Source: Candidatus Latescibacterota bacterium (GTDB taxonomy: Bacteria; Latescibacterota; UBA2968; GCA-2709665). Taken from it: a DNA stretch of 64,000 bases. Below are positions 15,212 to 39,273 of the stretch, one piece after another (position 1 is the stretch's first letter; every line of letters begins with the position of its first letter). Below the pieces are notes generated by a model. That model was not told the origin of the DNA, did not search any database, and saw only the letters and a list, made by a program, of their open reading frames with translations. The stretch lies in contig OZ242180.1 of NCBI GenBank assembly GCA_965205485.1, positions 128,001 through 192,000 on the forward strand, given 5' to 3'. Both the position numbers and the translations under genes were made by a program.

Positions 15212-17111
15212 TCACGGGGAAACATCGAGGGCGGACCGCCGGTTCTCTACTGCGATGATGGCGGTAACCAGCAGGGCGGATCCGTGCAGCCAGACCCGGT
15301 ATGCGCCGGAAGGCGTCAGAAACAGGACGAGCGCGGCAACCAGCAGAATGCCGCGTTGCCACGTATTGACGGGCCCGAAACCGAATCCCGATATGGCCAC
15401 TGCAAGGGGTAGAATCCCGGCGAAGGCGACGAGCACGTTGCCGAGGGTCGACGCAACGTTGGAGGAAACGAGTAACAGTTCGGGATGCAGTACAAAGGCG
15501 TAGGGAAGGGCGAAGCCGACCAGTGCGAAACGAAACGCGGCGACGCCGGTCCGCATGATGTCCGCCCTGGCGATCGCCGCGGCCGTGTATGCCGCGAGCG
15601 CCACGGGCGGCGTCACCATCGACATCATCCCGAAATAGAAGATGAACATATGCGCCGCCAGGGGAACGACGCCTAGCCCGCCCAGGACGGGGCCGACAAG
15701 CGTGGCCATGAGGAGGTAGCATACGGCCGATGGCAGGCCCATTCCCAGAATGATCGTGGATACCATCAGCAGAATCAGGGCAAGGACCAGGTTGTTCTGG
15801 GCCAGCGGCAGAATGGCGCCGGGCAGTTTGGCGCCGATACCCGTCAACGTGACAACCCCGATGATGATTCCCACGCAGGCGGCAGCCGCGATGAGAGAAA
15901 CCCCGCCGTGGGCCGCGCTCTCCACCGCGCGCAGCAGCGCGCGCGGCCCCATTCGCGTCGACGGCATCAATGCGGCCGCCAGGAGCATGCACGCCAGCGC
16001 GATGCTGACCGCCCGGAACGGCGTATAGCCCGCGACGATCAGCAGAATGAGACTCGCGAGAGCCACCAGAAAGACAAGGCCCTGAGCGCCCGGCGGACGA
16101 CTCGACGGGCGCTTCATCCCCGGAGGCAACCCGGATGCGCCGGGCGTGGAAGTGGACGATCAGCAGAAGCGCGGTATAGTAGAATACCGCAGGGATGAGC
16201 GCCGCTTTTACGATCTCCAGATAGGTGACCGCCGGCTCCACCATCTCCAGCATCATATATGCGCCAGCGCCCATGATCGGCGGCACCAGCGCCCCGCCCG
16301 AGCTGGCCGCCGCCTCGATCCCCCCCGCCGTCACGGACCGGAATCCTGCCGAACGCATCATCGGGATCGTGAACGTACCCGTTGTGGCCGTGTTGGCGAC
16401 CGCGCTGCCGGAAAGCGATCCCATGATCCCTGAAGCGACGACGGCAACCTTCGCAGGGCCCCCGGTACGCTTCCCGAAAAACCGGCGCGCGGCATCCAGC
16501 ACGTAGCCCGTCGCGCCGGTCCCCTCCAGCGTCGTGCCGAACAGGACGAAGAGAAACACATAGGTGAACATCACCTTCAGCGCGATGCCGAATACGCCCT
16601 GGGAATGCAGAAAAGCCTGGGAGACGATCCGCTCCCAGCCGTAACCCCGGTGCGGGAAGAGCCAGTCCGGCATGACGTGACCGAAGGCGGCATATGCCAG
16701 GAACGCGAGGGCGAGCAGCGGAAGGGTGGGGCCGATCGCCCGTCGGGTCGCCTCCAGGACCAGAATGAGGCCGGCAAGACCCACTGTCCAGTCCAGCGGA
16801 TGTTCGAGCCCCGCACGATTGCCAAGGCTTCGGCCGCCCGGCCACCAGCTCCTGAAGACCGGTTCGGTCTGGACCAGCACGTAACCGAAACAAAGGAAAA
16901 CACCCGCGACCAGCAGGTAATCCAGAATCCGCGGAAGCGCCGTCCGGGCGGCGCCGGCGCATAACGGGTACTTCAGGAATACAAGACTCAAGCCCAACAT
17001 GGCGAAGAATGCCAGTTGGGCTTGAGGCGTCAGTCCCGGATAGTTGACCTCCGCCAGGACAAAAACACCCAGCAGGGTCGCCAGGACGCGAAAGAGCCAC
17101 ATTTCGAGCAT
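15212..17111 (-). pseudogene. TRAP transporter fused 4TM/12TM permease, frameshifted (real lesion or sequencing error)
   Basis: GGPAKVAVVAS, GSAVAN, TIPMM, EAAASSGG, PPIMGAGAY in the 5' frame; LGMGLP, HMFIFYFG, VTPPVALAAY in the 15212..16129 frame. The switch lies near 16090. Confidence 0.88.
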
Positions 17112-17112
17112 G

Positions 17113-18111
17113 TCAGTTCGGCCAGATCCCGATTTCCCGGTAATACCTGATCGCGCCGGGATGGAAGGGCGTTCCCGTATCCCGAATCACGTTCGCCGGA
17201 TGAATCGCTCTGCCCGCGGGGTGCTTCCTGACCACGTCCCCGCGGTTCTCGTAGAGGATCTTCGTGAACCGGTAGACGGTCTCCTCGTCCAGGGCGGCCG
17301 GCGTCACCAGGTGCATTGCGCCCACGTTCATGCCTTCGAAGACTTCGGACTGGCCCCGGTAGGTTTCCGCGGGAATACTCGCCGCGTTGAAGAACGGATA
17401 GTCCTGAAACAGGCGTTCCTTTTCGGGGATTCCGAAGGGGATGAAGCGGATGTCCTGAGACGCGCTCGCCTGGGTGATGGACGCCGTTGGAACCGCGCCG
17501 CCCAGAAACGCGGCCGCTGCGGAGCCGTCCGCAAGCATATCCACGGCCCCGGCCTGCGTATTGTGCAGCGGGCTGAAGTCATCGTAGGTGACGCCGTGCG
17601 CCTCCAGAATCGGCGCGAGAAAATACTCGAAGCCGGCCCCGGCCGGGCCAACGACCACCCGTTTGCCCTTGAGATCGCCGATGGAGCGGATCCCGGATCC
17701 CTCCGTCGTAACGAACAGGGCGATATTCGGCGCCAGCGTCATGACGGCGTTGATGTCCTGCTTTACACCCCAGGCGCCCTCGCCGCGCACCGCGAAATAG
17801 GAAATCGCGGCATTGGCCAGGGCGAAGTCCAGTTCCCCGCGCACGAGGCGCCGGATGTTCTCCTGCGTCCCCTTGGTCGCCTCCGCGGTCACGTCCCACG
17901 ACAGGGCTCCCCCGTGGTCGTCCACGACCTGTGCGATCGCCCCGCCAACCACGAAAAACGCCCCGCCGGGCGGCGCCGTGCCCACGCTCAGAAACCGGCG
18001 CGCGGGGACGGATCTTTCCTGCTCATTGTCCGGGGCCTCGCATCCAAACGTACCCAGCAGGATGATGGCGGCTGCGACGCCCGCCGGTTTCAATGCCAGG
18101 AAGCGGTTCAT
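17113..18111 (-). CDS. TAXI family TRAP solute-binding lipoprotein
   Basis: Lipobox-like FGC; GTAPPGGAFF, ATKGTQENI, DLKGKRVVVG, PFHPGAIRYY. Confidence 0.92.
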   Translation of the reverse strand: MNRFLALKPAGVAAAIILLGTFGCEAPDNEQERSVPARRFLSVGTAPPGGAFFVVGGAIAQVVDDHGGALSWDVTAEATKGTQENIRRLVRGELDFALANAAISYFAVRGEGAWGVKQDINAVMTLAPNIALFVTTEGSGIRSIGDLKGKRVVVGPAGAGFEYFLAPILEAHGVTYDDFSPLHNTQAGAVDMLADGSAAAAFLGGAVPTASITQASASQDIRFIPFGIPEKERLFQDYPFFNAASIPAETYRGQSEVFEGMNVGAMHLVTPAALDEETVYRFTKILYENRGDVVRKHPAGRAIHPANVIRDTGTPFHPGAIRYYREIGIWPN

Positions 18112-38166: not shown

Positions 38167-38199
38167 GCCGTCCTCCTGGATCGCTATCAGGCCTTCCCG

Positions 38200-39273
38200 T
38201 TAGTATACGCCAACGACGACTGACTCCCGCATCTCCGAGAACAGACCCAGATTCCTCACGCCGTCCCAGGGAAACGCTTCGATGGGTTCCGCCCGTTCGC
38301 CCTCGTCCCGTTCCAGAAACCGCGGCATGAAGAACTCACGGGTAAGGGTCGTCAGCATGACCCTGCCAACCGCGTTATATGCCACCTGTTTGTCAGGATC
38401 ATCGGGGTCCACCAGTTCGATCACGGCCCGCGGGACCGGCGGATAATAGGTAATGGCGTAATTGTCCGAGGGTTCGAGCGGCTTGGAGTATGCCAGGCCC
38501 ATCAACGTATTTCCATACGTGGGCACGAAGTCGATTCCGGGAACCAGTTCTTCTCTCGCGAACCGGTTGAACTGCGCGTCCATCTCGGTCCCACCGCAAA
38601 ATATCCCCGAAATGCCGGCCTTTTTCAATGAAATCTTTTCGCAGATCGCTTCCAGAAGCTTCGGCGTTGTGAACATGCACTTCACGTTGTCGTTCACCCG
38701 CAGAATGGTCAGCGCCTGATCGATCACGTGGGCCTTGTAGAGATCCAGCTCCTGGAGGGCGCCCCGCGCGATCAGCTTGTTGACCCATCTGGGGTCCAGG
38801 TCCACCAGGAAGCAGATCCCGCCCCGGATCTGGCAGAGGTACTCCACCGCCAGCCGCAGCCGCCTCGGGCCGGTGGGTCCCAGCATCAGCCAGTCGGCCC
38901 CCCTGGGAAACGTCTCGTCCGAAAGGCGCCTGCTGAATATCTCGTAGTCGGTCTGGAAGTCTTCCTGGCTGATCCGGTATTTCGGCACCCCCGTGGAGCC
39001 GCCGGTTTCGAAGACATAGGTCCGTTTGCCGGCGCTTCCACGGGGAATCCAACGGCGCACGGGACCGCCGCGCAGCCATTCGTCCTGAAAGTGGCCGAGG
39101 ATTTTCAGGTCCTCATAGCCCCCGATCTCCCGCCGCGGATCGAAGTCCAGTCCGTCCGCGAATTCCAGCCAGAACGGGCACCCCGTGTCCGGATCGAAAT
39201 GCCAGGCGACGGTTTCCCGCACGTGGGCATCCAGTTCGTCCCTCGCCGCATCGACGCTTTCGGCAATCGACAT
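38200..39273 (-). CDS. GriC/EhpF/LuxE-like adenylate-forming enzyme
   Basis: Short ANL-type protein: WHFDPDTGCPFW, FETGGSTGVPK (P-loop), FCGGT, PTYGNT, ERD. Confidence 0.75.
   Translation of the reverse strand: MSIAESVDAARDELDAHVRETVAWHFDPDTGCPFWLEFADGLDFDPRREIGGYEDLKILGHFQDEWLRGGPVRRWIPRGSAGKRTYVFETGGSTGVPKYRISQEDFQTDYEIFSRRLSDETFPRGADWLMLGPTGPRRLRLAVEYLCQIRGGICFLVDLDPRWVNKLIARGALQELDLYKAHVIDQALTILRVNDNVKCMFTTPKLLEAICEKISLKKAGISGIFCGGTEMDAQFNRFAREELVPGIDFVPTYGNTLMGLAYSKPLEPSDNYAITYYPPVPRAVIELVDPDDPDKQVAYNAVGRVMLTTLTREFFMPRFLERDEGERAEPIEAFPWDGVRNLGLFSEMRESVVVGVY

Follow-up and report, generated by a model that had tools for sequence, protein, structure and literature searches.

The window analysed here, a stretch of 64,000 nucleotides (nt) from a Candidatus Latescibacterota bacterium (assembly GCA_965205485.1, contig OZ242180.1, positions 128,001 to 192,000), carries on its minus strand a cluster of 14 abutting genes at positions 19567-39273, which together with a third propeller gene, retained only inside the genus, forms the functional unit considered below. 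We propose that the 14 genes constitute a conserved biosynthetic operon in which a phenolic acid, most probably 4-hydroxybenzoate, would be activated, halogenated, modified by a radical S-adenosylmethionine (SAM) enzyme, reduced, glycosylated and exported; we hold this full reading tentatively, at somewhat less than an even chance. The strongly conserved orphan operon itself is real. Its anatomy and general logic, as drawn in an earlier sequence-only reading of the window, hold, whereas the idea of that reading that the exported propeller proteins carry a novel cofactor does not. Added here are the 4-hydroxybenzoate substrate hypothesis, a two-module architecture, and a cultured carrier, Roseimaritima sediminicola JC651. 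The gene set is under strong selection and was found in roughly one half of the Latescibacterota and one fifth of the Planctomycetota genomes sampled.

With the PaaK-like ligase of the cluster as bait, 50 loci were retrieved and screened by tblastn for the genes of the row. At least five row genes, at 60-98% identity, were present in 16 of them. The ligase gene proved a poor cluster marker and was abandoned as such, since in the other 34 loci (Planctomycetota, Binatia and Acidobacteria records) the PaaK homologue stood without the remaining row genes; some of the genomes behind these 34 loci hold other cluster genes elsewhere. For a class-level sample, ten genomes from three families were read over the 40 kb surrounding their EhpF-like gene. 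The core gene order was kept in the ten, and the number of genomes with each gene in the cluster is listed in Table 1. The missing cases are split clusters and not losses; for example, the halogenase gene lies elsewhere in the genomes G022 and G079. Across 151 Latescibacterota genomes the EhpF-like gene was found in 83 and the halogenase gene in 81, all of them within the 83, and the two EhpF-bearing genomes without a halogenase are 84% and 86% complete. An orthologue-level match to the radical SAM protein was observed in 37 of 41 relatives, and the remaining four also lack the EhpF-like and halogenase genes.

The conserved synteny and co-occurrence envisaged by the sequence-only reading extend to a second phylum. 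Among 201 Planctomycetota genomes, 39 have the EhpF-like gene; the identical 39 have the radical SAM gene and 38 of these the halogenase gene, and no match to any of the three was detected in the remaining 162, a pattern far beyond chance. The EhpF-like and radical SAM genes lie no more than 30 kb apart in 24 of the 39 genomes, the radical SAM and halogenase genes no more than 30 kb apart in 28 of 38 (no more than 3 kb in 25), and 21 genomes have the three in one chain within 30 kb. The EhpF-like orthologues share 51-86% identity over 16 genomes of the two phyla; the range is 69-100% across the class and 52-64% between the phyla. One planctomycete genome (G294) holds all 12 core genes in a single block of one orientation, 37-60% identical to the proteins of the window, in the order three propellers, EhpF-like, ALDH-like, iron-containing alcohol dehydrogenase (Fe-ADH), propeller 1, radical SAM, halogenase, GT4, thioesterase, membrane protein, PaaK-like, LolD and FtsX. 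Two others (G166 and G256) have a short form of the cluster. The genome of R. sediminicola JC651 contains all six genes searched for (orthologues of the EhpF-like, ALDH-like, PaaK-like, radical SAM, halogenase and GT4 genes), scattered over several contigs.

These comparisons set the boundaries of the unit. In the open reading frame (ORF) listing and the Pfam and NCBIfam scans, the co-oriented row at 15212-39273 comprises 17 ORFs; the sequence-only reading had counted 15 co-oriented genes, and the co-orientation stands while the number rises, since LolD/FtsX and TAXI/TRAP each stand for two. All six gene junctions that it quoted (35632/35616, 34478/34475, 29366/29363, 23528/23512, 22884/22869 and 17113/17111) are true overlaps or abutments in the ORF listing. 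The ligase gene directly abuts the halogenase gene, and the membrane protein and the thioesterase are encoded by two distinct genes. Upstream of the EhpF-like gene, co-orientation extends to at least 44110. Because the TAXI, TRAP, GFO and PcRGLX genes stand beside the cluster in none of the ten class-level genomes, which for the upstream GFO and PcRGLX genes means genomes of other families, we delimit the unit to 19567-39273 plus the genus-level propeller 3. The TAXI-TRAP genes, counted as cluster members in the sequence-only reading, and the GFO and PcRGLX genes are mere neighbours.

Table 1. Features of the window in and around the cluster, and number of class-level genomes (n = 10) with the gene in or beside the cluster (aa, amino acids)
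Feature	Position	Strand	Evidence or description	Class-level genomes
Two GFO/IDH/MocA oxidoreductases and a PcRGLX/GH127-like protein	39276-44110	-	abut the EhpF-like gene	0
EhpF/GriC-like truncated ANL adenylating enzyme, 357 aa	38200-39273	-	match to EhpF in the PDB	
ALDH-superfamily partner, EhpG/GriD-like, 474 aa	36742-38166	-	Pfam Aldedh, 43 bits	10
Iron-containing alcohol dehydrogenase	35616-36731	-	Pfam Fe-ADH, 151 bits; ADH_Fe_C, 118 bits	9
Propeller 1, exported, 8-bladed BamB/YxaL-type	34475-35632	-	PQQ_2 and Beta-prop_ACSF4 matches; signal peptide	9
HemN-like (class C) radical SAM enzyme	33132-34478	-	Pfam Radical_SAM, 72.5 bits; HemN_C, 35 bits	9
Intergenic gap between propeller 2 and radical SAM genes	32732-33131		mosaic of other dispersed repeat fragments	
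Propeller 2, exported, lineage-restricted	31502-32731	-	Pfam PQQ_2, 160 bits; signal peptide	5
TonB-dependent receptor, siderophore-receptor subfamily, variable member	29363-31492	-	TIGR01783, 249 bits (cut-off 223.5)	4
PaaK-like aryl/acyl-CoA ligase	28089-29366	-	PDB 4r1l match; AMP-binding_C_2 domain	8
Flavin-dependent halogenase, short CndH/PltA/Bmp2-like type	26807-28087	-	PDB matches	7
Repeat-filled gap	25867-26806		two tandem units of ~290 nt; inverted AATTAAG heptamer runs on either side	
GT4 glycosyltransferase with N-terminal CGxC motif	24562-25866	-	Glycos_transf_1, 99.8 bits	7
Small membrane protein, 166 aa, half-size DMT/EamA-like permease	24000-24500	-	hydrophobic throughout	6
4HBT/YbgC-type hotdog thioesterase, 148 aa	23512-23958	-	Pfam 4HBT_2, 48 bits; 4HBT, 44 bits	6
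LolD/MacB-type ABC ATPase	22869-23528	-	ABC_tran, 128 bits	6
Giant FtsX-type permease, 1105 aa, two FtsX domains	19567-22884	-	Pfam FtsX, two stretches	6
Propeller 3, exported	18152-19447	-	Pfam PQQ_2, 126 bits; signal peptide	0
Flank: TAXI solute-binding protein (17113-18111) and frameshifted fused TRAP permease (15212-17111)	15195-18111	-	TIGR02122, 259 bits (TAXI protein)	0

The enzyme-family calls of the sequence-only reading were all upheld. The protein encoded by the first gene of the cluster matches EhpF in the PDB (3l2k/3hgu) over its full length, with residues 14-357 aligned to EhpF 20-366 at an E-value of 5.6e-41, while Pfam yields a weak AMP-binding match and nothing else; on this EhpF match the label GriC-like is in substance sound. 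Its neighbour is a distant ALDH in which the cysteine of the GGRSCINAS motif (C288, tool numbering) is invariant in 16 of 16 aligned sequences. The two genes are adjacent in eight of the ten class-level genomes (exceptions G129 and G022), and the adjacency is kept in the planctomycete loci read, except in G158. A predicted complex of the two proteins scored an ipSAE of 0.77, compared with 0.00 for the best of three controls; of 157 solved complexes 116 reached this mark, as did 2 of 215 mismatched pairs, counts that are approximate because our own alignments were used. At least 87% of the contacts agreed between runs, and the partner pLDDT was at least 91. The EhpF-like and ALDH-like proteins are accordingly predicted, on the strength of these models, to bind each other, and as a complex they would reduce the carboxylate to an aldehyde, which the Fe-ADH could convert to a benzyl alcohol; the latter protein scores under every NCBIfam equivalog cut-off. 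Open frames of 833-900 aa had suggested EhpF-ALDH and PaaK-halogenase fusions, and these were rejected when tblastn placed the partners in different frames.

The PaaK-like ligase aligns with the phenylacetate-CoA ligase 4r1l at an E-value of 2.4e-61 and falls far below the equivalog cut-offs (210.8 against 646.3 for TIGR02155, and 238.2 against 700 for NF041878); it is a member of the PaaK-like family and not a PaaK equivalog. It would convert the acid to an aryl-coenzyme A (CoA) thioester. Several of the PaaK loci screened by tblastn, including three of the five planctomycete loci scanned with Pfam, have a propeller gene within ~3 kb of the ligase. At L030:8440-19377 and L039:6563-16689, both from Planctomycetota, the PaaK-like gene adjoins a PQQ_2 propeller gene; the pair is flanked by an FHA/GAF-domain protein in L030 and by an FHA/GAF sigma-54 activator in L039, and both loci carry a GldF/GldG-type ABC-2 system with DUF4340.

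Flavin-dependent halogenases are defined as a family by the GxGxxG and WxWxIP motifs. The halogenase of the window matches the PDB entry 8zop (1.8e-67), for which no relevant literature was found, followed by CndH (7.5e-61), PltA (1.5e-56), Bmp2 and CmlS. The FAD-binding GxGxxG motif, present as GGGPAG, and the FxDPxYSSG motif are invariant in 10 of 10 orthologues, and WxWxIP reads WFWYIP in nine of the ten and WFWSIP in one. The lysine of FVRKYS, also invariant in 10 of 10, aligns with K76 in the FPIKRG motif of CndH (position counted on the alignment), which we take to be the catalytic position. Enzymes of this short type act on carrier-bound rings, and we propose that the CoA thioester made by the adjacent PaaK-like ligase substitutes for the missing carrier-tethered substrate. 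The cluster holds no acyl carrier protein (ACP), and the ligase and halogenase genes abut; halogenation would take place on the CoA-tethered ring, with the halogenase encoded just downstream of the ligase. The 4HBT thioesterase, for which a signal peptide was looked for and not found, would then release the acid.

The radical SAM protein is related to HemN, with PDB matches to HemN (1.7e-33) and NocN (5.4e-24), and is not a HemN equivalog (176.4 for TIGR00538 against a cut-off of 324.95). Its NCBIfam scores for hemN (176 bits), HutW (175) and STM4012 (173) all fall under the cut-offs. The CxxxCxxC motif is invariant in 12 of 12 sequences and reads CRKRCKFCYF, without the fourth cysteine that follows this motif in HemN, where it has a functional role. 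We suppose that, between halogenation and release of the acid by the thioesterase, the enzyme adds a further modification to the ring, most likely C-methylation. Tailoring of heme or another tetrapyrrole, which the HemN/ChuW likeness, the TonB receptor and the pyrrole-halogenase relatives had brought to mind, was rejected: the receptor is not a core component, and a chorismate-lyase-fold gene adjoins the radical SAM gene in the planctomycete loci described below. Further copies of these enzymes were also noted. A second, diverged radical SAM and halogenase pair, adjacent and 39-44% identical to the window proteins, lies at G232:C1:334322-336796 and at G286:C10:20329-23118, and G224 and G312 carry second copies of both genes that are not adjacent.

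The substrate hypothesis is based on an ORF of ~170 aa that adjoins the radical SAM gene in all four planctomycete loci read, with the halogenase gene also there; it lies between the radical SAM and halogenase genes in three of them and on the far side of the radical SAM gene in the fourth. A profile search detected this ORF in 26 of the 201 Planctomycetota genomes, all among the 39 that bear the cluster, and in none of the 162 others, and its coordinates put it beside the radical SAM gene in the majority of the 26 genomes. A profile built from 20 sequences matched PDB 2nwi over nearly the full length (E 1.1e-5). The AlphaFold model (pLDDT 91.6) gave Foldseek matches to 2NWI ('AF1396, Pfam DUF98') at TM 0.72-0.78 and to E. 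coli chorismate lyase with bound product (UbiC 1FW9, 1G81, 1JD3 and 1G1B) at TM 0.58-0.64, with UTRA domains next, and the nearest Atlas clusters are named chorismate lyase or Rv2949c-like. Judged by its model, the ORF appears to have the UbiC/DUF98 fold and is a putative chorismate pyruvate-lyase. We infer that 4-hydroxybenzoate is the most likely substrate of the planctomycete clusters and, by orthology, probably that of the window cluster as well, and the aromatic carboxylate assumed in the sequence-only reading gains backing from the same gene. Shikimate-pathway genes occur near scattered planctomycete copies of the cluster genes: an AroD/AroE fusion (L095:4977-6509) adjoins the genes for propeller 1 and the radical SAM enzyme, and ~5 kb from a halogenase and radical SAM pair lies a gene for shikimate kinase (L096:17473-18759). 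We regard these as a weak hint.

The same enzymes might work in a catabolic or detoxifying route, in which an aromatic, possibly halogenated acid enters through the TonB or TRAP systems, is activated with CoA and is reduced or degraded; we consider this unlikely. The siderophore-class TonB receptor within the row and the TAXI-TRAP genes beside it would suit uptake, but the receptor is in the cluster in four of the ten class-level genomes and TAXI-TRAP in none. The combination of PaaK with a hotdog thioesterase recalls the phenylacetate catabolon, and the Binatia and Acidobacteria PaaK homologues do lie among aromatic-catabolic genes, yet ring-cleavage or beta-oxidation genes were not found in the Pfam scan, and every halogenation motif is intact in the halogenase. 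Furthermore, a precursor-supplying gene of the chorismate-lyase fold is embedded in the clusters of 26 planctomycete genomes, and the GT4 and the exporter-type ABC system are anabolic in character. A sodium:solute symporter gene that follows the halogenase gene in one planctomycete (L097:16986-19972) would also fit uptake. In that locus it is followed by genes for a UbiA prenyltransferase and a DUF420 protein, which are presumably heme O synthase neighbours; they did not recur in the other planctomycete loci read and were rejected as cluster members.

In the biosynthetic reading the GT4 would attach a sugar, and export from the cytoplasm would fall to the half-size DMT permease together with the type VII ABC transporter LolD/FtsX. 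Residues C18, G19 and C21 of the GT4 are invariant in nine of nine sequences. Pfam returned nothing for the small membrane protein; its nearest Atlas clusters are named DMT-superfamily permease (feature score 0.97), and its orthologues are 59-75% identical. The ATPase scores 255 bits for LolD (TIGR02211), under the cut-off of 307.75, 201 for YbbA and 155 for DevA. The permease, with about eight hydrophobic segments, matched no NCBIfam model and has orthologues of 37-55% identity in both phyla. GT4 orthologues were found in 57 of the 201 Planctomycetota, namely all 39 cluster-bearing genomes and 18 others. In the GT4 loci read from genomes without the acid-tailoring genes, propellers flank the GT4 gene in four of four, LolD is present in two of four and FtsX in one of four. 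Because the GT4 gene is flanked by propellers in such genomes too, we treat GT4, ABC transporter and propellers as a unit of their own. The genes of the cluster thus fall into two modules, one for acid tailoring and a more widespread one of GT4, ABC transporter and propellers, which are joined in some genomes.

This second module invites another interpretation, in which an envelope glycolipid is made: reduction as in LuxCDE would turn a fatty or lipid-linked acid into an alcohol, which would then be glycosylated and placed in the outer membrane by the LolD/FtsX transporter with help from the propellers. We judge it improbable. An acid-reduction pair beside a thioesterase resembles the logic of LuxC, LuxD and LuxE, but Pfam gave neither LuxE nor LuxC for the EhpF-like and ALDH-like proteins, and the closest solved relative, EhpF, serves an aromatic (phenazine) pathway. 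Flavin halogenases need electron-rich rings, and the planctomycete versions embed the chorismate-lyase-fold gene; both points speak against a lipid substrate, even though the module stands alone in other genomes and the high conservation of the cluster would suit an envelope role. The DevA score of the ATPase is relevant here, DevA being involved in heterocyst glycolipid export, as are the matches to the glycolipid exporter BrtI in comparable clusters from sponge microbiomes, for the part of the preprint that we compared (Loureiro et al., bioRxiv 10.64898/2026.08.03.742642).

The propellers are truly linked to the pathway, as already drawn in the sequence-only reading: three of the ~10 PQQ_2 genes of the genome lie within the row, and propellers flank the pathway genes in both phyla. 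The propeller 1 gene adjoins the radical SAM gene in both phyla. Its ORF is open to 35701, with Met24 at 35632 as the likely start. An orthologue of propeller 2 (at least 48% identity) is present in five of the ten class-level genomes; propeller 3 is 76-94% identical in those near-relative loci that reach that far, and no orthologue was found at the same position in the ten class-level genomes. Export of propeller 1 by the twin-arginine (Tat) pathway was rejected, as the RRRAR stretch of the window copy is not conserved and the orthologues carry plain Sec-type signal peptides.

The sequence-only reading had further suggested that the exported product is a new quinone-like cofactor and that the three propellers are quinoproteins independent of pyrroloquinoline quinone (PQQ), an idea that we now regard as very unlikely. 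The mature propeller 1 (~350 aa) was modelled as a compact protein of eight blades (pLDDT 95.5), with Foldseek matches to BamB (TM 0.83), YxaL (TM 0.87) and tetrathionate hydrolase (TM 0.85-0.87), while a quinohemoprotein dehydrogenase (ADH) appears first at rank 50 with a TMt of 0.46. As a PQQ-dependent dehydrogenase it scores 80 against a cut-off of 480 (TIGR03075), at ~350 aa compared with ~550-600 aa for that family, whose quinoprotein fold carries insertions. Its modelled fold matches BamB, although it scores 193 against a cut-off of 285 for TIGR03300, and the other two propellers score 70 and 40. The cofactor idea could draw on the invariant G-C-D triplet of propeller 1, on the tie between propellers and pathway in both phyla, with three of the genomic PQQ_2 genes in the row, and on the genome itself, in which no PqqE match above the cut-off was found and PqqC gave no match, a blank that says nothing since the PqqC control matched in no genome. 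However, the propeller is a minimal BamB/YxaL-type model, its orthologues have Sec-type signals without a conserved twin-arginine, propellers accompany the GT4 and ABC genes also in genomes that lack the tailoring enzymes, and the pathway contains no quinone-making step. The propellers fit better as periplasmic partners of the exporter than as cofactor-bearing quinoproteins, and as Sec-exported proteins of the BamB/YxaL type they may receive, hold or process the product. A bolder extension of this view is that a pathway spread over several phyla makes halogenated 4-hydroxybenzyl-alcohol glycosides, which pass from the type VII ABC transporter to 8-bladed propellers dedicated to them in the periplasm. 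We think it unlikely that all of this holds; if it did, small molecule and propeller would be partners of a new kind, with the molecule as ligand, substrate or prosthetic group, and the pathway could also be the bacterial source of the simple bromophenols credited to sponges and red algae.

Several observations weigh against the proposed 4-hydroxybenzoate pathway as a whole. The order of the steps is guesswork. No carrier protein was found in the cluster, in which none of the scanned proteins gave a PP-binding match and no ACP-like ORF was detected when one was sought in the gap at 25.9-26.8 kb, and the Pfam scan revealed no flavin reductase. The radical SAM protein scores alike for HemN, ChuW/HutW and STM4012, so its chemistry may be other than C-methylation. 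The ~170-aa ORF was not recognised by Pfam in four of four members at E-values up to 10. Moreover, the genome of the window lacks a chorismate-lyase-like gene in searches with the ORF profile, PF04345 and PF01947, and just 3 of the 151 Latescibacterota genomes gave a strong match; the acid must therefore come from another source in this organism, which perhaps obtains it by import. The assignment of 4-hydroxybenzoate to the window organism rests on orthology to planctomycete enzymes that are 45-65% identical. Glycosylation of this aglycone stays putative because GT4 orthologues occur in 18 genomes without the tailoring genes. The identity of the EhpF-like proteins across the class looks more like that of housekeeping genes than is typical of secondary metabolism. 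Finally, the genomes are related and not independent, and the co-occurrence counts, which do show linkage, overstate the support.

As stated in the sequence-only reading, the long gaps of the row are filled by repeats, and these are dispersed over the genome. The two tandem units at 25867-26806 are 93% alike, each with perfect 24-nt inverted arms, and the 288-nt unit has 23 genome copies of at least 200 nt at 87-100% identity; by its sequence it looks like a dispersed element similar to a miniature inverted-repeat transposable element. The gap at 32732-33131 gave 79 blastn high-scoring segment pairs across the genome. We read both as insertions into an otherwise tight operon. A promoter and terminator scan was uninformative, with counts no higher than in shuffled sequence. 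In the downstream flank, the TRAP permease is frameshifted near 16118-16129, with DctM positions 3-198 and 218-410 in separate frames, and is either a pseudogene or the product of a homopolymer assembly error. Elsewhere in the window, G+C falls to 0.48-0.51 at 52001-54000 and 58001-62000, compared with ~0.62 in the remainder, and these stretches may be foreign DNA.

A substrate hypothesis, two modules and a cultured carrier make this orphan cluster a testable problem. It bears on the origin of simple halogenated phenolics in marine holobionts and on the role of the many BamB-like propellers of Latescibacterota and Planctomycetota.

Individual components of the cluster resemble known systems. 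The propeller 1 model is like BamB and YxaL in its 8-bladed fold; the propellers are unlike BamB in falling below the equivalog cut-off and in occurring in several copies per cluster. The exporter shares the LolD-type ATPase and two FtsX domains with type VII ABC systems such as MacB, LolCDE, YbbAP and DevBCA; unlike these, its permease of 1105 aa has no NCBIfam match, and a MacA-like adaptor gene was not seen in the row by the Pfam scan. A similar logic underlies the mycobacterial p-hydroxybenzoic acid derivatives and phenolic glycolipids, for which the lyase Rv2949c forms 4-hydroxybenzoate, FadD22 adenylates it, and glycosyltransferases and export follow. The present cluster differs in having no Pks15/1-type elongation and in adding halogenation, a radical SAM step and the reduction of the carboxylate.

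Two other systems, lyase and brominase pairs for bromophenols, place a chorismate-lyase-type gene beside a flavin halogenase gene. Their halogenases, Bmp5 and BaaB, are single-component enzymes of another halogenase class. In the sections of the source that we compared, such a gene pair implies halogenation of 4-hydroxybenzoate, as in Bmp6/Bmp5 and in BaaA/BaaB of Planctomycetales strain 10988, and BaaB is described as Bmp5-like (10.1101/723874). The halogenase of the window is instead of the short CndH/PltA/Bmp2 type, and BaaA/BaaB was rejected as the same system because of this difference in class. The lyase-like gene is absent from the genome of the window, and genes for reduction, glycosylation and export are added.

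Related as a gene set are the Halo_AMP clusters of sponge microbiomes, a pseudoclass that combines a flavin halogenase with an AMP-binding enzyme without polyketide synthase (PKS) or nonribosomal peptide synthetase (NRPS) genes (Loureiro et al., bioRxiv 10.64898/2026.08.03.742642). The window cluster likewise holds these two enzymes and neither PKS nor NRPS genes. According to the sections compared, Halo_AMP clusters frequently contain PQQ-like domains, TonB receptors, glycosyltransferases, thioesterases, radical SAM enzymes and BrtI-like exporter matches; 9% of the families belong to Latescibacterota, and none is tied to a product. The preprint needed a custom rule to find them, in agreement with the warning of the sequence-only reading that rule-based finders of biosynthetic gene clusters may miss such a locus. 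The claim that the system is undescribed was overstated given this listing. Nothing on this gene combination beyond the preprint was found in the literature library searched. In the sections compared, the preprint does not mention the EhpF/ALDH/Fe-ADH module, the chorismate-lyase-like gene, the two modules or the occurrence in Planctomycetota, and its model case has cytochrome P450s, which the window cluster lacks.

In the preprint, clusters of this class are proposed to yield small brominated peptidic alkaloids, which the AMP-binding enzyme and the halogenase would assemble from aromatic amino acids. We find this highly improbable for the window cluster, despite the shared inventory of PQQ-like, TonB, glycosyltransferase, thioesterase and radical SAM genes and the share of Latescibacterota among the gene cluster families. 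The preprint cites BagE and other PaaK-like enzymes as bond-forming (10.64898/2026.08.03.742642), but the Pfam scan found no amino-acid-activating, peptide-forming or P450 genes in the row. The cluster instead includes a carboxylate-to-alcohol module, its planctomycete versions embed the chorismate-lyase-fold gene, and genomes with the same gene set have record titles without a link to sponges.

The acid-reduction pair has the same form as EhpF/EhpG of the Pantoea agglomerans phenazine D-alanylgriseoluteic acid and GriC/GriD of grixazone, namely a truncated ANL adenylase of ~355 aa beside an ALDH-family protein of ~460 aa. Both known pairs reduce an aromatic carboxylate to an aldehyde. The phenazine genes and those for 3-amino-4-hydroxybenzoic acid (3,4-AHBA) that accompany them are absent here. 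In the gene table of PMC11278526, ehpF (1062 nt) and ehpG (1371 nt) are neighbours. In the window, the corresponding pair comes with an Fe-ADH, a HemN-like radical SAM enzyme, a halogenase, a GT4, an exporter and propellers.

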